From NCBI GenBank assembly GCA_016788045.1, contig JAEUTG010000005.1, forward strand, positions 4,309 to 68,308: a stretch of DNA of 64,000 bases. The letters are read 5' to 3'. Numbering within the stretch: the stretch's first letter is position 1; each line of letters opens with the position of its first letter. Below the pieces are notes generated by a model. It saw only the letters and a list, made by a program, of their open reading frames with translations. It was not told the origin of the DNA and ran no database searches. The position numbers were made by a program, and so were the translations under genes. The stretch comes from Bacteroidales bacterium (lineage in GTDB: Bacteria; Bacteroidota; Bacteroidia; Bacteroidales; Lentimicrobiaceae). Shown here one piece after another: positions 2,174 to 18,360 of this stretch.

Positions 2174-2429
2174 TTATGCCGACACTCAACAGCCACACAC
2201 ATTGCCAAGCCGCACAATCCCAAACTCAAGCCAAAGCTTGTCAAAGAGTGTGTCTGTCCCAGCCCACGGAAAGACAGAGGAAAATAAAGCACGGGCACAC
2301 AACAAAGTGTATAAATCATTGGGCGGATAGTCCTAATTTTAAGGGCGTTACACTTAATAAAATTTGTAGCGGTTTGACAGGTAAGTGCTTCGAAATGCCC
2401 AACGCTTCATACACCAACCGTTACCAGCA
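2174..2429 (+). repeat. ORF-free spacer with attC-like half-sites, ending in core site GTTACCAGCA
   Basis: GCCAAGCCGCA within 2204-2218 matches 4598-4608 exactly (11/11). AGCGGTTTG..GTGCTTCG at 2368-2392 parallels the 5' arm of the 4483-4613 element. GTTACCAGCA at 2420-2429 is the exact reverse complement of 4483-4492. Confidence 0.45.
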
Positions 2430-2471: not shown

Positions 2472-4475
2472 ATGAATGTAGAACCAATCATTAACGCCAA
2501 GTTCAAAAGGTTTCGTGAAAAAATGGAACTAACCAATATCGCTGACGGTGTTGCATTTGAACAATTTGTAAATCACACAATTTTAACTGCACACCAACCA
2601 GATGCATTTAATGGTGACAATGAACTCTTTGAAAAAGTCAATGTGGGTGGTACAAAGGACATGGGTATTGACGGAATTGCAATAAAATTGAATGGACTTT
2701 TTATAAGAGATATTGATGAGGCAAGAGACTTGACTAAGCGACTTCCCAGAATTTCAATTGAATTCATTTTCATTCAATCAAAATATAAATCAAATTTTGA
2801 CAAAGGTGAATTCAATAATTTTTCAGATGGAGTTCGTGAATTTTTATCAGAAAAGCAAAAGCAACCTGTAAGCGAAGAAATTAAGGAACTCATAAAAATC
2901 AAAGAGTTTTTAATTAGTGAAAATGCTGTATTCAAATGGGACGATAATCCATCTGTAAGACTATACTATGTTGTAATGGGTAAATGGCACAATAGTCAAC
3001 ACCAATTAGCCCTAGCGGACACGTTTAAAGAAGACATTCTAGCTCTTAATACTTACAAAGAACCATTAATACACTTTGTTGACCATGATGGTTTTAAATC
3101 AATTCTTGATTCAAATGAAAACAACTTTGAAGTGTCAATAAATTCTATTGAAACAATGCCCTTGACATCAGTTGACTTAGTTGACAACTCTTGCGTATTA
3201 CTTTGCTACGCCAGCGAACTAAAGAAAATACTTACTACACCTGATGGTCTAATAAGGAAATCCTTGTTTGATGATAATGTGAGAGATTATCAGGGAGACA
3301 ATAGCATAAACACAGAGATAAGTAATACAATTCAGACTGAGCCACAGAAGTTTGCTCTCTTGAACAATGGTATTACAATTGTGTGTGAGAAGTATACTCC
3401 GAGCAACAGACAAATTACACTTCGAAACCCACAAATTGTAAATGGCTGCCAAACTAGTCACGTTATTTTTCATAATGCTAGTGATAACGATGTTCTATCA
3501 AGAGTTCCAATTGTTATTAAGCTAATTTCAACTAATGACTCTGAAATTACCAACCAAATTGTTAGAGGAACAAACCGGCAAAATATTGTATATGATGAAG
3601 CATTTGAGGCTACGAAAAAATTTCACAAAGACCTTGAAGACTTTATTAATGCATTATCACCGGAATATGAAAGGTTCTATTATGAAAGACGTTCAAAGCA
3701 GTATGACCATAATCCATCAATTAGTCATTTTCAAAAACTGAATTTGAGAATTATAATACAGTCTTTTATTGGCATGTTTGTGAATGAACCACACATATCA
3801 CATAGACACGAGTCAAAATTATTGGAGTTATATTCAAATTTAGTTTTTCAGGATTTTCAGTCAAAATTGCCATATTTTACTTCTGCTTTAGCATTTTATA
3901 AACTTGAGAAACTTTTTAGAGCTAACGCAATTAACAAGAAGTCATTTTATGCATTTAGAACTCACCTTCTAATGATATTTAGGGAAATTACAGGTGGAGC
4001 TAGACCAAACATTAATGTGGAGAAAATTGCAAACGAGCATAGCCAACTTGTTCTCTCTTATTTAAAGGATGAAGACAAATGCCGTCAAAAGTTCATTGAG
4101 GCTAGCGAGATATTTGAACAAGCAAGGCAACACTGGGTAATTGTTTTAAAACGTGACCAATATAGAATCAAAGACAACAAAGACTTTACTGATTTACTTC
4201 TTACAGGAATAAGAAAATCCACGACAATTACAACAGATTTGGTAGAGGACGAAAATTACAAGTATAAAGGACCCATAGTTAAAATATTTAAGGATAGATT
4301 CGGAACATATTGTGGGTTTATTGGACGTAATCCCAATGACATATTTTTTCATTCAAGTTCAGCAAAAGGTATTGACTTATTCGGTAAAGTGGGACATCTA
4401 GTTACTTACAAAGTGACAACAAATCCTAAGAATGGACAACTTATTGCCACTGATATTGACCTAGATAAAATATGA
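2472..4475 (+). CDS. AIPR-family (abortive infection phage resistance) protein with a C-terminal cold-shock/OB-like domain
   Basis: The N-terminus has MGIDGIAI...IFIQSKY (Mrr-like D...QxK). The centre has FALLNNGITIVC and QIVNGCQTSH, typical of AIPR. The last ~65 aa (GPIVKIFKDRFGTYCGFIG..DIFFHSS....GHLVTYKV) follow a CspA-like pattern. Confidence 0.8.
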   Translation: MNVEPIINAKFKRFREKMELTNIADGVAFEQFVNHTILTAHQPDAFNGDNELFEKVNVGGTKDMGIDGIAIKLNGLFIRDIDEARDLTKRLPRISIEFIFIQSKYKSNFDKGEFNNFSDGVREFLSEKQKQPVSEEIKELIKIKEFLISENAVFKWDDNPSVRLYYVVMGKWHNSQHQLALADTFKEDILALNTYKEPLIHFVDHDGFKSILDSNENNFEVSINSIETMPLTSVDLVDNSCVLLCYASELKKILTTPDGLIRKSLFDDNVRDYQGDNSINTEISNTIQTEPQKFALLNNGITIVCEKYTPSNRQITLRNPQIVNGCQTSHVIFHNASDNDVLSRVPIVIKLISTNDSEITNQIVRGTNRQNIVYDEAFEATKKFHKDLEDFINALSPEYERFYYERRSKQYDHNPSISHFQKLNLRIIIQSFIGMFVNEPHISHRHESKLLELYSNLVFQDFQSKLPYFTSALAFYKLEKLFRANAINKKSFYAFRTHLLMIFREITGGARPNINVEKIANEHSQLVLSYLKDEDKCRQKFIEASEIFEQARQHWVIVLKRDQYRIKDNKDFTDLLLTGIRKSTTITTDLVEDENYKYKGPIVKIFKDRFGTYCGFIGRNPNDIFFHSSSAKGIDLFGKVGHLVTYKVTTNPKNGQLIATDIDLDKI

Positions 4476-4482
4476 GAAATAC

Positions 4483-4613
4483 TGCTGGTAACAGCGGTTT
4501 GGCGTAATGGCGGGTGCAGTGCTTCGTATGACAGTTTTGTGCAAGGTGCAAGTGCAGTTCTTCGATTGAACCTTTGTGCTAAAAATCCGCCACTACGCCA
4601 AGCCGCAAAACGT
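4483..4613 (+). repeat. attC-like recombination-site candidate (131 bp), with its 3' core interrupted by an intron
   Basis: The arms GGTTTGGCGTAATGGCGG (4496-4513) and CCGCCACTACGCCAAGCC (4587-4604) are 16/18 complementary. The site starts with TGCTGGTAAC and ends with AAAACGT. Both arms are homologous to the 16717-16856 element. Confidence 0.6.
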
Positions 4614-5275
4614 GTATGTCTTGAATCAATAAGAACAAAACAAGTTCTTTGAGAATGTTGTATCTGAGATAGAAGATTTTATGATGTAATACAAGACTGC
4701 GGAGGTCAAGCGAAGCGATTGTCCGGGTCGGTATCACCAATCATAAAGACAGGCCTTCTGCTGACGGCTTTCAGGAGTTGTTAGCAAACCACCTTATGCT
4801 GCAAATGGCGCAAACTCCTTTTGTGGTGAACGATAAGGAAAAGGGCAGCCATGAGTTGTTCAGGTGGGGTTAAGATGAGCTGAAAAGCGTAAAATATCGA
4901 TATAAGTATCGTTAAGGCATAACTGATGTTAAAACCGGGTAATTACGTTTGTACCCTGGAAACGCCTTATAGAAAGGGCACTGCACAAGAAACCTGATTA
5001 CTGTCTTTATAGCTTCCTGAGTAAAGGTATTAGGATATTTAACTGGGCTCAGATGAGTAGTGGGTTAGTTGGGAAAAGGGACCTTTTTAGTGGGCAGCTA
5101 TAAGGTATCTACGCTTCAGGTATAAGGCATCTCCTATTCTTATCGAACACTGGCGATTGTGTATTCCATGATTTAGTAATACATTTGTAATGAAACAGGA
5201 AGAGCCGTATGAATTGAGAGGTTCACTTACGGTTCCGTGAGAACGCTGGGGTGAAACTCCCCGGCGTGATTCGAC
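4612..5275 (+). mobile_element. ORF-less group II intron (class C / attC-associated type suspected); the 5' boundary is either 4612 or 4614
   Basis: Canonical 34-nt domain V at 5202-5235 (GAGCCGTATGAATTGAGAGGTTCACTTACGGTTC: AGC triad, GAGA tetraloop, AC bulge). Domain VI-like 9-bp hairpin at 5243-5267 with unpaired A5269, 7 nt from the 3' end (...GAC). The 5' GTGTATG approximates GUGYG. No + strand ORF over 60 aa lies inside. Confidence 0.7.
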
Positions 5276-5320
5276 TAGGCACAATTATAAAAAAGCATTG
5301 CAAAAGATTAACCTAAATAT

Positions 5321-8300
5321 ATGAAAGAATTTTTGAGGAAATCTATTGAAAAGTTTATTCAGTATTTATCGCATATTCTAAATAAATTTGAATCTGATTT
5401 AGGTTCTGGAAACAATTTTAATACGCTTTCACCGACTGAGAATGCTGAGAATGTTGAAAATTATATTGATTCCTTAGATTGGGCATTAAAAAATAAAAAT
5501 AAAATAAAAAACATTGCAATTTCAGGTGCATATGGCTCTGGTAAGAGTAGTGTAATAAGAACTTTTATAAAAAGGAATAAGAATAAAGATTATAAGTTTC
5601 TTAATATTTCCCTCGCAACTTTTAAAGAACAAAAAGAGCAGTCAAATCACCAACAAAATGGTGATAATGATATTTTAAGACTTATTGAATTGAGTGTTTT
5701 ACAACAATTATTTTATCATGAAAAAGACAGAAAAATTCCTGATTCAAGGTTTAAAAAAATAAAAAGCCATAAGACACGATTCTTATTTTACTATTCTGTC
5801 GGTATTATTGCACTTTTAGTTTCTACCCTGTTTCTTATAGCCCCAGATTTCTTATCAAAATTCTACTTAATAAAAATTCCTCAAAACCTTATTCCACTAG
5901 CTCACTATACTGCCGCATCAATAACAATAATTGGTTTGTTTTTCATCATTTTCAAATCATCAAGAGCCTTAAAAAGTATAGCTATAAAAAAACTTAATAT
6001 CAGTACTGCCGAAATTGAGATTGACGGTGGAATTAGTAAATCTATTTTGAACAATCATATTGATGAGATTCTATATTTCTTTGAAGTCACAGACTATAAT
6101 GTTGTTATTATTGAAGATTTGGACAGATTTGAGCAAACTGAGGTCTTTACGAAACTACGAGAAATAAATCTTCTAATAAATAATTCAAAAAAAATCGATA
6201 CCGAAGTTGTTTTTATTTATGCAATTAAGGACGATATGTTTCTTGACAAAGACAGAACTAAGTTTTTTGATTTTATGATACCAATCATTCCGGTAATAAA
6301 TTCATCAAATTCAAATGAAAAATTATTAGAGATTGTAAAAAAGAATAGTTATAAAATTTCAACTGATTTGATAGATGATATCTCACTATTTATTGACGAC
6401 ATGAGATTACTTTATAATATTATGAATGAATATTATATCTATTCAAAGAACCTCGATTCAAAACTTGACCAAGAAAAGTTGCTGTCGATGGTTGTATACA
6501 AAAATATTTGTCCTAATGATTTTACTAAGCTAAGCGAAAATAAAGGGAATTTATTTCAAACTATTTCTAATAAATCGATTTATATTAAGGAAAGGATTTC
6601 AATAATTAATCAACAAATAGAAGAAATAAAGAAACGAATTCTTGAAGCTGAAAAATCAAAAATTTCTGATATTAAAGAATTGAGATTGATTTATATAAAC
6701 AAAATAATTGAGCAAATAATTACCAAAAAAAATTATCCTTTTAAGCAATTTTGGTTAAATAATAATGCCTACAATATAAGTTCAGTGACAGATGATGATA
6801 TTTTTTCATTATTTCTTATTGGCAACATTGAGTATTTATATGACAACTATTCTTCCCGTCAAAGTTTTATATACAAATTTGAAACAATTGAGAAACTTGT
6901 AAACCCAGACTTAACTTATAAAGAAAGGGAAGAATTAGTAGTTAATAATGCAAAAATTGACAGCTTTAAAAAACAAATATCCGAGTTAGAAAAAAGAAAG
7001 ATTGAAATTAGAAAAAGTGAGTTACGGAATTTAATATCAGATGAACTTATAATAATTAGTCAAGAATCTACTAAGCAAAGCGAGCTTATTAACATTTTGC
7101 TTAGGAACGGATATATTGATGAAAATTATTTGGATTACATTTCAATATTTTACGAGGGTAGTCTTACAAAAGCAGATTATCAATTCCTTATTAATGTGAA
7201 GATTCAAAAACCATCTGAATTCGATTATAAATTGACAAAAATTGAAAGGTTAATTGAGAAAATAAGTCTTTTTGATTTTGAGAAGGAGTATGTTTTAAAT
7301 TTCGAATTAGTTGAATCTTTGCAACAAAAACAGAATGATTTTGCGAAAAAAAATCGACTGTTCATTCAACTAAGCAATCAATCCCCAAGGTCAATAAGCT
7401 TCATTGATGGATTTATTGAAATTACTACAGACATAAAGGTTTTTATTCAGAACATTTGTGAATACTGGAATGAGATATGGACATATATTGAAACAGATTC
7501 ATTTTTTGATGATGTCAGAAAAAATAAGTACTTTATATATATAATTAAATACGCTAAAGTAGAAAATATCCAATTGATATTTAATTCACATCATGAACTT
7601 TTAAATAAAAAACCTGACTTTTTGCAAATTATTGATGACGAAAAGAAACTGAAAAGTATTATAGAAAAATTGGAGCTGAAATTTGAAAATATAAATACTG
7701 ATTCTCCCTCTTCTCTCATTGATTTTGTGTTTAAAGGAAATCATTATGTTTTAAATAGGGATATGATTGAAATGCTCCTCAAACACTATAAAAAATTTGA
7801 TGCCAGTATATTCTCCACAGCTAATTTCACGTCTATAATGACAAGTTCTCTTGCTTCCATGATTGACTATATCAGTAATAATCTTGAACAATACATAAAT
7901 TCAGTCTATTTGAAGATTGAGACAAATACAGATGAGCCGTTAGAGAACTATTTAAAATTATTGAACAATGAATCCCTCGATGAAGATTTAAAAGAAAAAT
8001 TGATTATTAAAGTAAAGACAAAAATTATCGACATCAAAACGATAAAGGATACCAATTTATGGTATATTTTATTTGAATACTCGAAGGTTTCTCCTGTGTG
8101 GGAAAATATACTTGCAAGTTTCGAAAATGAAGATAATGAATTGTCAGAAGTATTAATTGATTACTTAAATATTATTCCCAATGCTGAGGAACTTTCTTTA
8201 ATTAAAATCCCAACAAAAGTTGGTGATAAGAATGTTTTTTCAAACCTATCACGAAGTATTATTTCTGAGAATGAAATAGGTGACGAATCCTACAAATTAA

Positions 8301-8950
8301 TTACAAAACCGATTCCTTGGTGGTTTAGTGATTTAGATTTTAGTAGCATTTCCGAAAACAAGACTAAGATTCTAATAAATAATATGAAAGTAAATCCTAC
8401 AATTGAAAGTTTCAACAAAATTAAAGAGAGTCACAATGGTTTAAATATTTATTTACTTGAAAAATTCCCAAAAGAATTTATTGAAAAAATAGATGAATTA
8501 GAATTTGATGGTGATGACTTGATACTAATTTTGGAATCATCATTATTAAGTATTTCGGATAAAAAGGTTCTCTTTGAAAGATTAGATTTGGAAATTATTG
8601 ATTCTAATAGCAAAATACTATTGCTTCTTTCTCATTTTATTGGACAAAATGCTGGCTTCAATCTAAAAGACTCAACAAAACGAAAAATTCTTCTCTCAAC
8701 AGTTATACCTAGAGATAAAAGAATTGAATTATTCGTACAAAATATAGTAACTATTGATATCGATTTTATTAAATTATTTATGAATACGCTTGGTAATGAA
8801 TATTATGAAATTACGTACCAAGATAAAAAGGCAACATTAACAGACAATACTCTAAATAGAAAGTTCTTGGATAAACTGGCATCAGCTCAATATATCTCAA
8901 GCTTTTCAGAATCTAGAAAAGGACTTAGAGTTAATCATAAAAGAAAATAA
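5321..8950 (+). CDS. YobI/KAP-family P-loop NTPase, 1209 aa
   Basis: Walker A is ISGAYGSGKSS. Two hydrophobic helices (FLFYYSVGIIALLVSTLFLIAP and AASITIIGLFFIIF) are inserted before Walker B VVIIEDLDRF. The block FTKLREINLLIN...FIYAIKDDMF..RTKFFDFMIPIIPVINSSNS matches my recollection of the B. subtilis YobI family. Confidence 0.8.
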   Translation: MKEFLRKSIEKFIQYLSHILNKFESDLGSGNNFNTLSPTENAENVENYIDSLDWALKNKNKIKNIAISGAYGSGKSSVIRTFIKRNKNKDYKFLNISLATFKEQKEQSNHQQNGDNDILRLIELSVLQQLFYHEKDRKIPDSRFKKIKSHKTRFLFYYSVGIIALLVSTLFLIAPDFLSKFYLIKIPQNLIPLAHYTAASITIIGLFFIIFKSSRALKSIAIKKLNISTAEIEIDGGISKSILNNHIDEILYFFEVTDYNVVIIEDLDRFEQTEVFTKLREINLLINNSKKIDTEVVFIYAIKDDMFLDKDRTKFFDFMIPIIPVINSSNSNEKLLEIVKKNSYKISTDLIDDISLFIDDMRLLYNIMNEYYIYSKNLDSKLDQEKLLSMVVYKNICPNDFTKLSENKGNLFQTISNKSIYIKERISIINQQIEEIKKRILEAEKSKISDIKELRLIYINKIIEQIITKKNYPFKQFWLNNNAYNISSVTDDDIFSLFLIGNIEYLYDNYSSRQSFIYKFETIEKLVNPDLTYKEREELVVNNAKIDSFKKQISELEKRKIEIRKSELRNLISDELIIISQESTKQSELINILLRNGYIDENYLDYISIFYEGSLTKADYQFLINVKIQKPSEFDYKLTKIERLIEKISLFDFEKEYVLNFELVESLQQKQNDFAKKNRLFIQLSNQSPRSISFIDGFIEITTDIKVFIQNICEYWNEIWTYIETDSFFDDVRKNKYFIYIIKYAKVENIQLIFNSHHELLNKKPDFLQIIDDEKKLKSIIEKLELKFENINTDSPSSLIDFVFKGNHYVLNRDMIEMLLKHYKKFDASIFSTANFTSIMTSSLASMIDYISNNLEQYINSVYLKIETNTDEPLENYLKLLNNESLDEDLKEKLIIKVKTKIIDIKTIKDTNLWYILFEYSKVSPVWENILASFENEDNELSEVLIDYLNIIPNAEELSLIKIPTKVGDKNVFSNLSRSIISENEIGDESYKLITKPIPWWFSDLDFSSISENKTKILINNMKVNPTIESFNKIKESHNGLNIYLLEKFPKEFIEKIDELEFDGDDLILILESSLLSISDKKVLFERLDLEIIDSNSKILLLLSHFIGQNAGFNLKDSTKRKILLSTVIPRDKRIELFVQNIVTIDIDFIKLFMNTLGNEYYEITYQDKKATLTDNTLNRKFLDKLASAQYISSFSESRKGLRVNHKRK

Positions 8951-8955
8951 ATAAC

Positions 8956-9060
8956 TGTGCCTAATAAATAGGAATATAAGTGGTCTGCAAGATACATTGA
9001 GTAATAGCTTGCACTGCGCACGTGCTTCGTCCCCGATTAGCAGATGTATCAGTTTTCAAG
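8956..9060 (+). repeat. attC-like spacer, second sequence class
   Basis: It starts with TGTGCCTAA (an inverse-core-like site). It has a GATACAT/ATGTATC stem (8990-8996 and 9044-9050), the central GTGCTTCG motif, and TCGTCCCCGATT (9027-9038), which is shared exactly with 10610-10621. Confidence 0.4.
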
Positions 9061-9185
9061 TACGTGGAATTTATCCATAATTCAGTAACATTTATTAAAC
9101 AATAAAATGGAAACACTGAGATGGTCTAATCCCTTTGGACAGTATTTTGTACAAATAAAATTATTATTGTCAAAACATTCTAATA

Positions 9186-10496
9186 ATGGAACTAAGTGCA
9201 ATAGTTATAAGAGTTGATAATGATAGGATTTATTTAAGTCCGAAATCATCGATTTCTATTCAACAAACTAACATTCCAATATCACATATGACTTTTCGAA
9301 CTCAAAGAAATATTTTTTGGAAAGTTGAGTTAATTCATTTCATGCCTACCGATAAGTGTCTTAAAGTTCGTGTAAAAGAATACAATACTTTTGATATTTC
9401 AAATTTTGATAGCCAACACTTAGATGAAGAAATAGATCGTCTTATTTTTGAAAAATTAGATTGGAAAAGCCTGGAACCACTATTAACATCCTATCAGTTA
9501 AGCAAACTAAAAGAATTTGTTTTTAATTCCGATTCAGGAATAAATTCCATTATCGAATCACCGCTACCAAAAGCATATAAATTTTTCTCCAACCTTTCAA
9601 CACCTATTAATTCAGGTAATAAAGGAATTAGACCAACAATAACTACTTTGCCTGATGAATTTTTAATAAGCTTTAAAGATTCTCATTTCATTTCAGGTTA
9701 TGTTACGTTTAAGAAATTCATCAAGCAACTCGGGCAAGAACTCGACTTCCAAATTTCAAATAATTATATCTTAGAAGAGTTTGAAAATGTTAAGTCTTGG
9801 TTTGTTAGAAAACTGAAAATTAAAAAATTTAAAGTATCTGTGCTTATTACATTAACTGATGGTAAGGTAACAGAGAAAAAAGCAACTTCAAACCATATTG
9901 ATCAAATCAATCCGGAATTAATTGAAAGTATAAAGTATCAACGAACTTACGCACTTATTAAAGAGCCAAAAGAAGCGAATACAAGCAAATCACTTTACAC
10001 TTGTGATGATATTTTCAATTCTATAAATTCAGGGGACATTGAAGGGAATGTCTTTAAACAATCAGAGCAAGATATCCTTGATTTTTTTATTGGAAAAAGT
10101 ACCACCCGGAACAAAAATCAGCTTGTTTACTTATCAGGTAAAAAGCAAACAGAAAATTACAAAATAAGGTATACGTTAAATCCAAATTTTGGTTTTTTAT
10201 TTTTAATTGAAGGTGCTGAGAAAAATCATTTTGTTTGGGAATTACTTAATTCTCATGCTACGTATATTTGGAGCATTCAAAGCGGAGGAAATAAGGTTGA
10301 ATCACAGTTCAGAACAATTGAAACGATTATAAATTCAATTAAGTCGAATGGTAGAGAAAATTATAAGCGAACATATAAAGAAAATTACCAAGATTTGGAC
10401 TTCGTTTTTATGATAATTACACATGACAACATTACTTCGGAATTTGTTGATGATTTCCCAAAATGGAAGGAAAAATTAGATAAATTAGTAATATGA
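9186..10496 (+). CDS. Hypothetical protein, 436 aa, no domain recognised
   Basis: Long AT-rich ORF with an ATG start, co-directional with the neighbouring cassette genes. No motif recognisable by eye. Confidence 0.7.
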   Translation: MELSAIVIRVDNDRIYLSPKSSISIQQTNIPISHMTFRTQRNIFWKVELIHFMPTDKCLKVRVKEYNTFDISNFDSQHLDEEIDRLIFEKLDWKSLEPLLTSYQLSKLKEFVFNSDSGINSIIESPLPKAYKFFSNLSTPINSGNKGIRPTITTLPDEFLISFKDSHFISGYVTFKKFIKQLGQELDFQISNNYILEEFENVKSWFVRKLKIKKFKVSVLITLTDGKVTEKKATSNHIDQINPELIESIKYQRTYALIKEPKEANTSKSLYTCDDIFNSINSGDIEGNVFKQSEQDILDFFIGKSTTRNKNQLVYLSGKKQTENYKIRYTLNPNFGFLFLIEGAEKNHFVWELLNSHATYIWSIQSGGNKVESQFRTIETIINSIKSNGRENYKRTYKENYQDLDFVFMIITHDNITSEFVDDFPKWKEKLDKLVI

Positions 10497-10539
10497 CAAC
10501 TTTAAATTCGGAAGAATATGAAATACCTCTAATATATTA

Positions 10540-10640
10540 TACTCTTATCACTCCGCAATTTCGGTCGCAGATGAAACCAACGAACATCCGCTTACGGTGA
10601 TCCCCTTCCTCGTCCCCGATTGGTGGTTATATCAGGATAG
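10540..10640 (+). repeat. attC-like spacer, second class (weak)
   Basis: TCGTCCCCGATT at 10610-10621, followed by ..TATCAG as at 9027-9052. It has short ATCAC/GTGAT and CCAA/TTGG stems. Its boundaries are not defined. Confidence 0.3.
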
Positions 10641-10776
10641 CAGAATACATATCATCATTGAGTTGAACCAGGAAATCAGATTTACACCAGGACTTTTACT
10701 GATAACTTTTTGGTTCACAAAGATAGTTGTGTTGGAATAACCCCGCCACCCAAAGAATCGTTTTTTTTAACAGAAC

Positions 10777-15401: not shown

Positions 15402-15435
15402 AACGTTAGAGTAAGGCTAACAGACGACAAGAACA

Positions 15436-16698
15436 ATGACTGAAAAATACACGATAGACCAAATCAGAGATGAAATAATAAAGTTCAAAAATGACCCTGA
15501 CTTTCAAAGGTTAGAAAATTTTTACTATTCAAAATCATTCTCTGAAATTTTGGGCGTGAGCAGAAGAGAAATTAGTCATAGTGGATTTCTCGCTTGGCTT
15601 CTTGGAAACTTGGAAAGCCATAATTTGGGTGAGTTCTCAATCAAAAAGTTCTTAGATATTGTTTTAAAATTTAGCAATGACAAATTAAAAAGAAAGCACA
15701 GCGACCTTTTTAACGCATTTGTTACGGAAGACTATTCAATTGAAAGATTATTTGTTAAATCGGAATATGCAATTAAAAATGTTGGTAGGCTCGACATTTA
15801 TATCGAATTGACACTTTTGATTGCAGGAAAAACAAAGAACATTCGGGTAGTAATTGAAAACAAAGTTGAAAGTAAGGAGAATAACGACCAAACAAACAGC
15901 TACTTCAAATACTTTAATCCAACGCAAAATGAAGATAACATTGTAATCTATGTATATTTAACACCCATTTCAACGCTTGACTTAATAGAACTAACAGAGC
16001 CTGAGTGTAGCTGTAAAGAGTTTATCCAAATTAACTATCAATCAATAGTTGACTATCTAATAGAACCAGCATTAAATCAGAATATTTCAACTCGAACTCA
16101 AAATATACTAACTGAATATTTAAAATCGTTAAGTCAACCTTCCATCAATGAAGAAGCTGACGGACACAAACAAGAACTAATTATGGCACTTGGTAACGAA
16201 GAAAGAAAATTATTGTCAAGTTTTTGGGAGAAAAATCAAAAGTTGATTTTAGCCTCATTATATGCAATAAGTTCTGACCCTGAACAAGAAAAAGATACAA
16301 GGGACAGTATCAGAGAAGCATTAGACAGCTTGTCTTCCGACAAAGACCGAAGTACCTACAACATAAAATATAACGGAGAAATATTCAGCAGTAATTTCAA
16401 AAAATCTGACATTGGTCTTCAAACAATAAACCTTTTAAATGCAAAAGGACTTATTGACGATAATATTATAAAATATCTTCGAAAAGATAAAAGTTGCAGT
16501 TTCTTTCTTCTTAAGAAAAAAGAAGAATTTACAGAAACAGAAATAAAATACAGAAAGTATAGGACTAATGATTCACCTGAACTTATTTACAACGGTGAAG
16601 AATTTTATGTTGCACGAAATTGGGGAATTGGAAACATTCACAAACTCATAAATAATTTTACCGACAAATTTCCAGGACTTGAATACGAAACAAATTAA
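15436..16698 (+). CDS. PD-(D/E)xK nuclease-family protein (PDDEXK_4-like N-domain) with an uncharacterised C-terminal half
   Basis: HSGFLAWLLGN...GRLDIYIE...VVIENKVESKENNDQTNSYFKY matches the H..FLAWLL / D / ExK pattern of that family. Confidence 0.75.
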   Translation: MTEKYTIDQIRDEIIKFKNDPDFQRLENFYYSKSFSEILGVSRREISHSGFLAWLLGNLESHNLGEFSIKKFLDIVLKFSNDKLKRKHSDLFNAFVTEDYSIERLFVKSEYAIKNVGRLDIYIELTLLIAGKTKNIRVVIENKVESKENNDQTNSYFKYFNPTQNEDNIVIYVYLTPISTLDLIELTEPECSCKEFIQINYQSIVDYLIEPALNQNISTRTQNILTEYLKSLSQPSINEEADGHKQELIMALGNEERKLLSSFWEKNQKLILASLYAISSDPEQEKDTRDSIREALDSLSSDKDRSTYNIKYNGEIFSSNFKKSDIGLQTINLLNAKGLIDDNIIKYLRKDKSCSFFLLKKKEEFTETEIKYRKYRTNDSPELIYNGEEFYVARNWGIGNIHKLINNFTDKFPGLEYETN

Positions 16699-16716
16699 TA
16701 TAAAGCAATGAAAACC

Positions 16717-16856
16717 AGCCTATTACAGGTGTTTGTCTTAATGGCAGTTGATGTGATTAATTTACCGGTCTACCTCGCATCAACTTTTGTGGTGCAATGA
16801 TCCCGATGCTTCGTGATGCTCCGAAATCCGCCACTAGGCCAAGCGTCAAATCGCTA
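16717..16856 (+). repeat. attC-like recombination-site candidate, same family as 4483-4613
   Basis: AGGTGTTTGTCTTAATGGCAG (16727-16747) matches 4493-4513 at 16/21. CCGCCACTAGGCCAAGCGTCAAATCGC (16828-16854) matches 4587-4613 at 22/27. There is an internal AGTTGATG/CATCAACT stem. Confidence 0.55.
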
Positions 16857-16885
16857 AGTGAAATAATAAATACGACACACAAAAT

Positions 16886-17796
16886 ATGATAGACCTTATT
16901 GGCGACATTCACGGACACGCTGACAAACTTGAAGAACTACTTCTCAAATTGGGTTATGCAAAAAATAATGGAGCATACTCACATCCGGACAGAAAAGTTT
17001 TGTTTGTTCTGACTATATTGACAGGGGACCCAAAATTCGGGAAACACTTGAAATTGTTAGGTCAATGGTTCAAAGTGAAAACGCTGTTGCCTTAATGGGA
17101 AATCATGAATACAATGCACTATGTTTTCATTTTCAGGAAACCGAAGGCGGACATCTTAGAAAGCACCTAATTAAAAATATTATTCAACACTACGAAACAC
17201 TTAAACAATTTCAAAACCGACAAAGAGAATATGAAGATTATTTAGAATGGTTTAAGACCCTTCCGCTTTATTATGAAAAGGACTCATTTAGAGCCGTTCA
17301 CGCTTGTTGGGATAAGAATAACATTGAATTCCTACGGCAAACATTGGATAACGACAGATTGACGGACGACTTAATTTATCAATCAGCAAAAAAAGGAACT
17401 GCATTAAACCAAGCTATTGACCAAACATTAAAAGGAAAAGAAATGAAAATGCCGGAAGGACTTTTCTTTATCGACAAGGACGGAACCAGAAGAACAGAAA
17501 TAAGAATTAAATGGTGGGAAAATCCATCTGAGATGACATATAAATCTATAAGTGTTGAACCAATTGAGAAATTACCAGAAAAACCGATAGACGATTCAGA
17601 ATTAAAAACAAACGGGTATTATCATAGCAAAGAAAAAAAAGTATTCTTCGGACATTATTGGTTGAAAGGCGAGCCAACACCTTACAAGGAAAACATTTGT
17701 TGTTTGGATTACAGCATCGCAAAAGGTGGGAAACTTGTTGCATACAGACTGAACGGAGAAACGATACTGAAAAGAGAAAACCTGATCTATGTTTGA
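16886..17796 (+). pseudogene. Metallophosphoesterase (PrpE/ApaH-like) with a frameshift at ~17009
   Basis: GDIHGH in frame 1. After VLFV, the expected GDYIDRG continues in another frame (DYIDRGPKIRETLEIVRSMVQSENAVALMGNHE). Two nt (CT, 17009-17010) stand where a Gly codon should be. Confidence 0.7.
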
Positions 17797-17807
17797 CAGA
17801 ATTACAT

Positions 17808-17943
17808 CCTGTAACAGCAACTACCCAAAAGTGGCGGTTCAGTCGTGATATCGAACTTCGTGTCTCGATCAAGCTTTGTGCCTGGTTTACAGTGAATTAC
17901 TCCGATCCCAAAAGCATTGGGGACGCCACCCTCGGGTAGTTGC
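17808..17943 (+). repeat. attC-like recombination-site candidate
   Basis: GCAACTACCCaaaaGTGGC (17817-17835) pairs with GCCACcctcGGGTAGTTGC (17925-17943). The 5' CCTGTAACAGC resembles TGGTAACAGC at 4487-4495. There is an internal ATCGA/TCGAT stem. Confidence 0.5.
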
Positions 17944-17958
17944 CATCCGCGAGGGTAA

Positions 17959-18149
17959 ACGAAAATTTCGGCACGGAAAGAACTGGTAAATTATTGGGTT
18001 GAAAGTTCTGATGAAGACTATAGCCCAATAATTGTTATATTCGAAACCGAAAGATATAACCTGGACCTTATTATAGGGCACCTTTGATTGAAAAATTGTT
18101 GAAGGATTTGTTTGTCAAAGTTAACAGGGATTATCCCCATTGTTATTGA
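17959..18149 (+). pseudogene. HEPN-domain gene remnant (no start codon, one frameshift, truncated)
   Basis: KELVNYWVESSDEDYSPIIVIFETERYNLDLIIGHL then a stop. One frame over, LIEKLLKDLFVKVNRDYPH continues. Together they resemble the W..SS..D...GHL..EKLLK pattern of small HEPN proteins. The Rx4-6H motif is absent. Confidence 0.4.
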
Positions 18150-18165
18150 AACCATGTATAACATT

Positions 18166-18238
18166 GTCATTCTGAGCGTAACAAAGTGAAGCGAATAACC
18201 GACCAAAGGGAGCCTGCCTGACTGCACAGGCAGACAGG
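18166..18238. repeat. Composite REP/MITE-like element
   Basis: GTCATTCTGAGCG..GTGAAGCG head plus GCCTGCCTGACTGCACAGGCAGACAGG palindrome. The same two-part layout occurs at 24270-24340. Confidence 0.6.
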
Positions 18239-18360
18239 TTCACCGAAGGTAATCTCATAAGCAATTCCAAAGTTTACCGGACAATAGTGAATGAAAATAA
18301 ACAGCCTTTGAAAAAAAAGCCACCCCTCAGGATGGCTCTTTTTATTCATGCTTTTCAAAA

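Follow-up and report, generated by a model that had tools for sequence, protein, structure and literature searches.

Can a group II intron that sits inside an integron-type recombination site, in sense to the cassette genes, still splice, or is it a remnant of one that could? The question is raised by a 64,000-nt stretch of contig JAEUTG010000005.1 from a Bacteroidales bacterium (hereafter the window, meaning the whole stretch analysed), in which a 662-nt intron at positions 4614-5275 interrupts an attC site between two anti-phage cassette genes, AbiU and Tmn. The initial annotation of this DNA described a working group II intron without an open reading frame (ORF), needing only a maturase supplied in trans. 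We consider it likely that the element is instead a decayed fossil of a mobile IIC-type intron from a lineage widespread in Bacteroidota, that it was derived by internal deletion and most likely no longer splices, and that it has disabled its attC and locked the AbiU and Tmn cassettes together.

The identity of the element is clear from its RNA domains. Rfam, applied to the 64-kb window at gathering thresholds, gave a total of two matches, both on the forward strand and both within 4612-5275, and the result was reproduced with permissive filters. RF01999 (group-II-D1D4-2) matched 4745-4865 with 80.4 bits (E = 1.5e-14), and RF00029 (domains V and VI) matched 5200-5275 with 47 bits against a cut-off of 40. 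The 34-nt domain V and the domain VI hairpin with a bulged A that had been pointed out at the 3' end are both borne out by RF00029. The surrounding ~660 nt are ORF-free as described: no forward-strand ORF of at least 50 aa occurs in 4612-5275. The principal parts are as follows.

4614-5275 (662 nt), forward strand: group II (IIC-type) intron, a probable relic with an internal deletion; Rfam matches and 88-91% identity to the 1948-nt introns of loci L141, L137 and L138 (L numbers are our labels for loci carrying related introns or used in comparison)
4626-4654, forward strand: lineage-specific hairpin AAGAAC...GUUCUU preceding domain I
4659-5056, forward strand: domain I (D1), closed by a helix of 4659-4667 with 5049-5056 and holding the RF01999 match
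4945-4948, forward strand: exon-binding site 1 (EBS1) ACGU in a D1 terminal loop
5202-5235, forward strand: domain V (D5), 34 nt, RF00029, with AGC triad and 2-nt bulge
5238-5275, forward strand: domain VI (D6), from the Rfam alignment; it terminates in ...GAC, and A5269, 7 nt before that terminus, is bulged

RNAalifold, run on 22 aligned sequences covering the 5' part (alignment A3), gave 56 pairs for D1, of which 32 carry compensatory changes. The hairpin that precedes D1 varies in sequence across the family in the same alignment, with its complementarity kept. The EBS1 that the annotation had asked for exists: its ACGU pairs at all four positions with intron-binding site 1 (IBS1), ACGU at 4610-4613. 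Among relatives there is covariation at the fourth position, ACGG facing CCGU in four cases and ACGC facing GCGU in one. The features of class C are present, namely a short IBS1 (3-4 nt) with no accompanying IBS2, a DNA stem-loop upstream that serves as target, plus, in the full-length relatives, an intron-encoded protein (IEP) without endonuclease domain. By these features, rather than by phylogeny, 4614-5275 is a group II intron of IIC type.

The exact ends show how the intron sits in its target. Its start had been given both as 4612 (GTGTATG) and as 4614, and only the second stands. Near-identity to relatives begins abruptly at window 4612-4614, and relatives read ...CGT|GTGTGNCTTGAA at the 5' junction and ...CGAY|T at the 3' end. 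Across a 30-member set including the window copy the 5' junction is ...(A/C)CGT|GTGTGNC(T/C)TGAA, the window copy having GTATG, and in the nine copies whose 3' end was retrieved the 3' junction is ...GTGAYYCGAY|T(A/G)(G/T).... The comparison with relatives places the 5' end at 4614, so that the intron begins GUAUG and not GUGUA. Uninterrupted sites in locus L075 read AAC-GTT-ATGC, and since the 3' exons of the introns begin with T, not GTT, the insertion point is GT|T. Excision of 4614-5275 joins AAAACGT to TAGGCACA and regenerates GTTAGGC, the core that the annotation had foreseen; the intron separates GT from T within this R' core (GT|TAGGCAC), a break after GT as in IIC-attC introns. A true 5' end near 4684, with 4612-4683 as exon, was considered by analogy with L002 and L003 and rejected, as L026 and the metagenome copies are near-identical from 4612-4614 on and the extra 5' hairpin covaries. 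The interrupted site, attC A, and the genes on either side of it are laid out as follows.

2472-4475, forward strand: AIPR/AbiU abortive-infection gene, upstream cassette; 667 aa, Pfam AIPR E = 5.9e-48, PADLOC AbiU E = 8.9e-107
4484-4613, forward strand: 5' part of attC A; R'' CTGGTAAC at 4485-4492, arms 4494-4513 and 4587-4606, spacer AAAAC; G4612 and T4613 begin R', and 4610-4613 is IBS1 (ACGT)
5276-5283, forward strand: remainder of attC A R', TAGGCACA, and start of the Tmn cassette; T5276 is IBS3
5321-8950, forward strand: YobI-like P-loop NTPase/Tmn defence gene, downstream cassette; 1209 aa, Pfam YobI-ATPase E = 5.7e-124, PADLOC Tmn E = 2.3e-95

Relatives were gathered by scans of GTDB genomes and metagenomes, which returned at least 29, all of them from Bacteroidota among the matches listed. 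The closest, again among the matches listed, are L026, from a Bacteroidota metagenome-assembled genome (MAG), and the metagenome contigs L141/L135, L137 and L138. These relatives, at least 29, share the insertion point (A/C)CGT|T and the sense orientation, and their EBS1 and IBS1 covary; in ~25 loci the 5' exon closes with ...CGT and the 3' exon opens with T(A/G)(G/T). In the window the intron, the attC sites and the cassette genes are all on the forward strand, in agreement with the sense orientation first annotated, and the flanking ORFs lie on the intron's strand in ~19 of 24 loci (oriented by the intron). L141/L135, L137 and L138 contain introns of 1948 nt, each with an intact 407-aa IEP that has a YADD motif and the RVT_1 and GIIM domains and lacks an endonuclease domain, and in L141, L137 and L138 each intron occupies a different attC. 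The window copy is thus no isolated case but a single relic from a large lineage with sense orientation. No plasmid-borne IEP exceeds 48% identity to the IEP of this lineage, the best plasmid matches (45-48%) being outside integron contexts, and blastn against 72,556 plasmids found RNA similarity only in D5/D6, plus one D1 match. The alignments show a target rule for the family, an attC hairpin followed by (A/C)CGU|U, and derivation of the window copy by one internal deletion together with point changes.

This deletion is the first of the lesions that argue against splicing. The window was aligned with its full-length relatives in two halves, either side of a large gap: 4611-5054 and 5059-5289 match L141, L137 and L138 at 88-91% identity, and about 1286-1290 nt are absent between them. 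The affected positions, together with the altered 5' end, are listed here.

4614-4618, forward strand: 5' end GUAUG, with G3 changed to A at 4616; GUGUG in 29 of 29 other family members
5054-5059, forward strand: deletion junction; relative to full-length relatives ~1286 nt are gone, comprising D2, the junction between domains 2 and 3 (J2/3), D3, D4a and most of the IEP ORF
5059-5171, forward strand: remnant of the last ~38 reverse transcriptase (RT)/maturase codons, recognised by aligning it with the 3' ends of the L141, L137 and L138 IEP genes; degenerate, with an in-frame stop

The IEP remnant, taken with the full-length relatives, indicates that the ORF-less state of the window copy is secondary. 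What else was lost can be read from the intact relatives. In every one of them an invariant GGAACAAG directly follows the D1-closing helix, and ~180 nt of conserved, covarying helices come next, including GUAGUAGUGAUGA and a hairpin ahead of the start codon. Judged by position, conservation and covariation, this block must contain D2, J2/3, D3 and D4a. In group II ribozymes J2/3 contributes to the catalytic triplex, D3 acts as a catalytic effector, and the maturase binds primarily at D4a. All ribozyme-complete relatives, ORF-less ones included, keep both GGAACAAG and the ~180-nt block, and both are absent from the window copy and from L023.

Point changes add to the deletion. Besides the altered G3, position 26 of D5 has gone from G to U (G-to-T at 5227), a change unique to this copy by which the U9·G26 pair beside the bulge becomes U·U; all relatives have U·G or U-A. 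Of the 56 D1 pairs, five are broken in the window copy, whereas none of the 56 is broken in L141, L137, L138 or L026. The substitutions of the window copy fall in 9 of 105 paired columns and 21 of 292 unpaired ones, and since these rates are equal within error there is no sign of structural constraint, D1 decaying at a neutral rate. As to the folding of the domains, D1, D5 and D6 can be recognised, and D2, D3, J2/3 and D4a cannot, having been deleted. A working intron in want of nothing except a maturase, as first annotated, is not supported by these findings, and the window copy has very probably lost the ability to splice, with or without a maturase in trans.

Several observations weigh against this reading and bear on the best-surviving alternative, an ORF-less intron that still works: transcribed along with the cassettes, it would splice with the help of a maturase from a full-length copy elsewhere, the attC sequence being restored in the RNA. 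D1, D5 and D6 are all recognisable, D1 and D5 being the minimal catalytic core; EBS1 pairs fully with IBS1; the branch A is bulged; and the orientation is sense. Ribozyme-complete ORF-less relatives exist (L094, L106, L107 and L119), which makes trans-complementation plausible in this lineage, and bacterial ORF-less introns usually accompany IEP-coding relatives (PMC4424553). The naming of D2, J2/3, D3 and D4a is not based on a solved structure of this lineage. A further observation concerns position 4658, where a unique C-to-T change in an otherwise invariant AUGCUG accompanies the G3-to-A change at 4616. If the two positions pair, in an epsilon-epsilon'-like contact, one change would compensate for the other, which would suggest that the copy was once selected for function. 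Residual splicing activity of the window copy is possible. A functional intron is nevertheless improbable: the conserved D2-to-D4a block is gone, unlike in the ribozyme-complete ORF-less relatives; D4a is the usual high-affinity maturase site, so that its loss would compromise help in trans as well; and the G3-to-A change, the U·U in D5, the broken D1 pairs and the lack of excess constraint on paired columns all point the same way.

The history of the fossil can be reconstructed in outline from these comparisons. Members of the lineage would recognise a folded attC hairpin together with a 3-4-nt IBS1, (A/C)CGU, and a 1-nt IBS3, U, and would retrohome into the coding (top) strand of the attC, between GT and T of R'. 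A full-length element of ~1.95 kb, encoding an RT/maturase without endonuclease domain, probably entered the attC that separates the AbiU and Tmn cassettes. Like other IIC introns, it would have done so by reverse splicing, here into the top strand of single-stranded attC DNA. An internal deletion of ~1286 nt, evident in the alignment, then removed D2, J2/3, D3, D4a and nearly the whole ORF, leaving D1, ~38 degenerate IEP codons, D5 and D6 to later drift. With 662 nt interposed in its R' box, attC A should be inactive for integrase recombination, and its inactivation would fuse the AbiU and Tmn cassettes into one unit. The 662-nt insert would be carried within the cassette transcript. The effect of the window copy is likely structural, with one attC disabled and two anti-phage cassettes welded together.

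A regulatory role is less probable again than splicing. The relic would here have been co-opted as an internal sense promoter, or as an RNA element, controlling the downstream Tmn cassette in the manner of Pout of the antisense IIC-attC introns, in which such promoters are documented (PMC3001079). Just upstream of D5, TACATTTG at 5180-5187 fits the Bacteroidota -7 promoter box TAnnTTTG and could be an outward sense promoter for that cassette; the box is kept in L141, L106, L107, L119 and L023, and the relic is still present although it has diverged by ~10% from its relatives. However, the box falls in the region of the D4 3' strand and IEP stop, which gives other reasons for its conservation, and the substitutions look neutral.

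The fossil reading also depends on the hairpin upstream of the intron being an attC site. The attC-like hairpin of the initial annotation is real, with 20-nt arms (4494-4513 and 4587-4606) that are 90% complementary around a 73-nt loop, and folded as single-stranded DNA it beats 200 of 200 shuffles. Eighteen elements could be aligned on a common layout (...YAAC-A, a stem of 20-23 nt, a loop of ~65-70 nt, the return stem, a 5-nt spacer and GTT), in which 14 of 15 stem pairs show compensatory change; pairing holds in 91% of cells, and in only 35-44% when the partner is slid as a control. A covariance model built from aligned attC elements (R1) found four sites in the window, all on the forward strand and two of them outside its training set; attC A, a training-set member, scored 102 bits. 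In the loci of the relatives the model found 43 sites, in arrays of up to 10 (L137), 5 (L110) and 3 (L075), always on the intron's strand. L075 (Runella salmonicolor) has small forward-strand ORFs, each followed by a ~130-nt GCATAAC...GTTATGC element, and in the third of these elements a 5' fragment of an intron from this family breaks the site at AACGT|. The other attC features of the window are these.

2295-2427, forward strand: attC Z, closing the preceding cassette; R1 88.4 bits (training-set member); R' GTTACCAG at 2420-2427, with TTACCAG opening the AbiU cassette
8956-8964, forward strand: R''-like box TGTGCCTAA of a degenerate attC-like element after the Tmn gene, seen in the sequence; R1 does not detect the element
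16718-16859, forward strand: attC D, in a second, small cassette cluster; R1 40.1 bits, E = 1.3e-6, outside the training set; right arm 95% identical to 4583-4603
17807-17955, forward strand: attC E, the last before the core gene glyA; R1 57.1 bits, E = 4.1e-10, outside the training set

The cassette boundaries carry a more specific mark. The box GTTACCAG at 2420, which forms the 3' foot of the hairpin just upstream of the AbiU gene, is an exact complement (8/8) of the R'' box of attC A at 4485-4492. GTTACC is found a single time in the first 20 kb, at 2420 within this box, and TTACCAG is found again at 17572. In the same way T4613 joined to 5276-5283 gives TTAGGCACA, an exact complement (9/9) of the box at 8956-8964. 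Such complementarity between the start of a cassette and its R'' would be the footprint expected from G|TT recombination of circular cassettes. It puts the cassette junction at the ORF-distal end of each attC, and the intron accordingly lies in R' of the top strand.

Certain points weigh against attC sites. A crude tyrosine-recombinase motif scan found no integron integrase in the window, and none was found in the loci of the relatives. The spacers between R box and stem are asymmetric (1 nt and 5 nt), unlike the textbook attC, and the genes are unusually large for cassettes, at 667 aa and 1209 aa. In the sister-strain contig L145, unrelated genes (SMC_N/AAA_15 and an RVT_1 protein) replace window 1-10.7 kb as an island with no attC matches. 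Terminator hairpins are normal targets of IIC introns (PMC4424553). That the hairpins are another intergenic stem-loop repeat of Bacteroidota defence islands, terminator-like or like repetitive extragenic palindromic elements, with the intron an ordinary IIC intron after a stem-loop, is nonetheless the least probable of the alternatives, given the 8-nt and 9-nt exact complements between cassette starts and their own downstream R'' boxes, the conserved termini ...AAC and GTT..., the covarying stems, the unidirectional arrays of up to 10 repeats alternating with ORFs, and a combined sigma-70 promoter and terminator scan, itself uninformative for Bacteroidota, in which no T-run terminators appeared. 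Because no integrase was found, the cassette array extends beyond the left edge of the window and the spacers are asymmetric, we call the hairpins integron-type attC sites, belonging either to a cluster of attC sites lacking an integron integrase (CALIN) or to an integron with intI beyond the window.

Tyrosine recombinases near the arrays in L138, L077 and L023 were considered as integron integrases and rejected, as they are partnered with IS91-type Y2 transposases. In or beside the arrays, at L138:422-2505, in L137, in L077 and at L023:3419-5498, a tyrosine recombinase of ~305 aa is paired with an IS91-type Y2 transposase of ~390 aa (Zn_Tnp_IS91 and Y2_Tnp). Two intergenic stretches of the window, 8951-9186 after the Tmn gene and 10497-10760, hold the attC-like elements B (~8956-9110) and C (~10560-10700), which have motifs in common with attC A and attC D. 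Both carry CGTCCCCGATT(A/G)G...TATCAG, and B also has the loop motif TGCTTCGT, at 9023, which is common to attC A (4520) and attC D (16807). Both elements are missed by the attC covariance model and may be degenerate or divergent attC sites.

How the lineage relates to described introns can now be considered. Like the IIC-attC introns of the S.ma.I2 type (Quiroga 2008; Léon & Roy 2009-2010), it has a IIC-type ribozyme and an RT/maturase without endonuclease domain, it targets a folded integron attC hairpin, it inserts within the core-box GTT after GT (TTGT/T in the S.ma.I2 type, (A/C)CGT/T in Bacteroidota), and it uses a short IBS1 and a one-nucleotide IBS3 without IBS2. IIC-attC introns, however, occupy R'' of the bottom strand, where they interrupt TTGT/T and run opposite to cassette transcription (PMC3001079, PMC7923331), whereas the Bacteroidota lineage takes the top strand, R' and the sense orientation. 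The host phylum also differs, the IIC-attC introns being of Proteobacteria, and the Bacteroidota lineage has an extra hairpin preceding D1. Its likeness to S.ma.I2 is one of features. In short, the lineage works like IIC-attC introns but fails their defining feature of strand and orientation. PMC7923331 cites as an exception a single IIC intron of Enterobacter cloacae in the top strand of an integron (Rodríguez-Martínez et al. 2012). As described there, this lone proteobacterial case is called 'not a IIC-attC', and our comparison with it is by that description only.

The introns that target terminators, such as O.i.I1 and B.h.I1 (Robart 2007), share the upstream DNA stem-loop and the very short IBS1. 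Unlike them, the present lineage uses a ~120-nt attC hairpin with a conserved GTT core, and its insertion point is fixed relative to that core. RF01999 also matches conventional IIC-like introns in L002 and L003. The latter, at L003:2917-3574 on the Methylomonas sp. AM2-LC plasmid CP157007.1, is a ~660-nt ORF-less IIC-type intron of a conventional, non-attC sublineage, located after a stem-loop and with the D2-D4a block kept.

ORF-less copies are not confined to the window. Ribozyme-complete ORF-less relatives were observed at L094:231-956, L106:407-1178, L107 (reverse strand, 768 nt) and L119:6871-7692. The four share the endpoints of their ORF deletion, the first ~14 IEP codons (...TCACAGCCAATTACCA) being fused to the last ~55 nt before D5, and they are mutually 68-93% identical and occur in different attC sites and MAGs. 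This pattern suggests a non-autonomous intron family that is either old or still propagating, copies of which may still be mobile. In L023:928-1520, from a Lentimicrobium MAG, the shared ORF deletion is accompanied by a second deletion of D2-D4a, giving another relic of D1, D5 and D6 only, 593 nt long and likewise in an attC. ORF-less derivatives make up ~5 of 14 complete copies in the lineage, and bacterial ORF-less introns are considered rare (PMC4424553). Like the latter (Simon et al. 2008; PMC4424553), the window copy has no IEP, an IEP-containing ancestor and visible ORF remnants. Known ORF-less introns, unlike the window copy, are ribozyme-complete and splice alone or with an IEP in trans; in the window copy D2-D3-D4a are missing and point decay is visible. 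It more closely resembles the truncated intron fragments common in genomes, and L094, L106, L107 and L119 are the true ORF-less counterparts.

A wider proposal, which we put forward tentatively, is that Bacteroidota carry an undescribed and widespread IIC lineage that homes to R' of top-strand attC sites, in sense, mirroring the proteobacterial IIC-attC introns, and that this lineage has spawned a propagating, ribozyme-complete ORF-less family with shared deletion endpoints, the window copy being one dead member. A full-text literature search for group II introns, attC and Bacteroidetes jointly returned nothing relevant, though an earlier description may exist. attC sites would be exploitable by group II introns on either strand. 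Sense insertion, the rule in Bacteroidota, would avoid the transcription-blocking problem of antisense IIC-attC introns and would permit splicing from cassette mRNAs. If this is true, the model of intron-mediated cassette genesis, in which an ORF is joined to an attC via intron RNA, becomes directly testable.

Anti-phage cassette genes include a type I methyltransferase fused to an S subunit (198-1463), DUF6602/PD-DExK (1463-2173), AbiU (AIPR; 2472-4475), Tmn (YobI-like NTPase; 5321-8950) and a PDC-S26 PD-(D/E)XK nuclease (15436-16698). The GC content of the cassette region is ~30%, against ~50% for the genome. The region is an integron-type array serving as a Bacteroidota defence island, and with this locus Bacteroidota gain a further example of integron-type cassette arrays in which phage-defence genes accumulate. 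Elsewhere the locus left few traces. Megablast against 5,426 E. coli genomes gave no match, exact-protein look-ups of AbiU and Tmn returned nothing, and those of DUF6602 and of serine hydroxymethyltransferase (SHMT) returned only an identical 1.3-kb contig and sister-strain contigs.

Between psuK (PfkB) and glyA is the second cassette cluster, at 15407-18290, which includes attC D and attC E and is absent from the sister-strain contigs L145 and L148, which are 94-98% identical elsewhere. Within it, a metallophosphatase-like cassette gene (MIDLIGDIHGH...) at 16887-17796 is apparently split by a frameshift near 17000. The host, a member of the Bacteroidota, has type IX secretion system (T9SS) sorting domains and BACON and CHU_C proteins.

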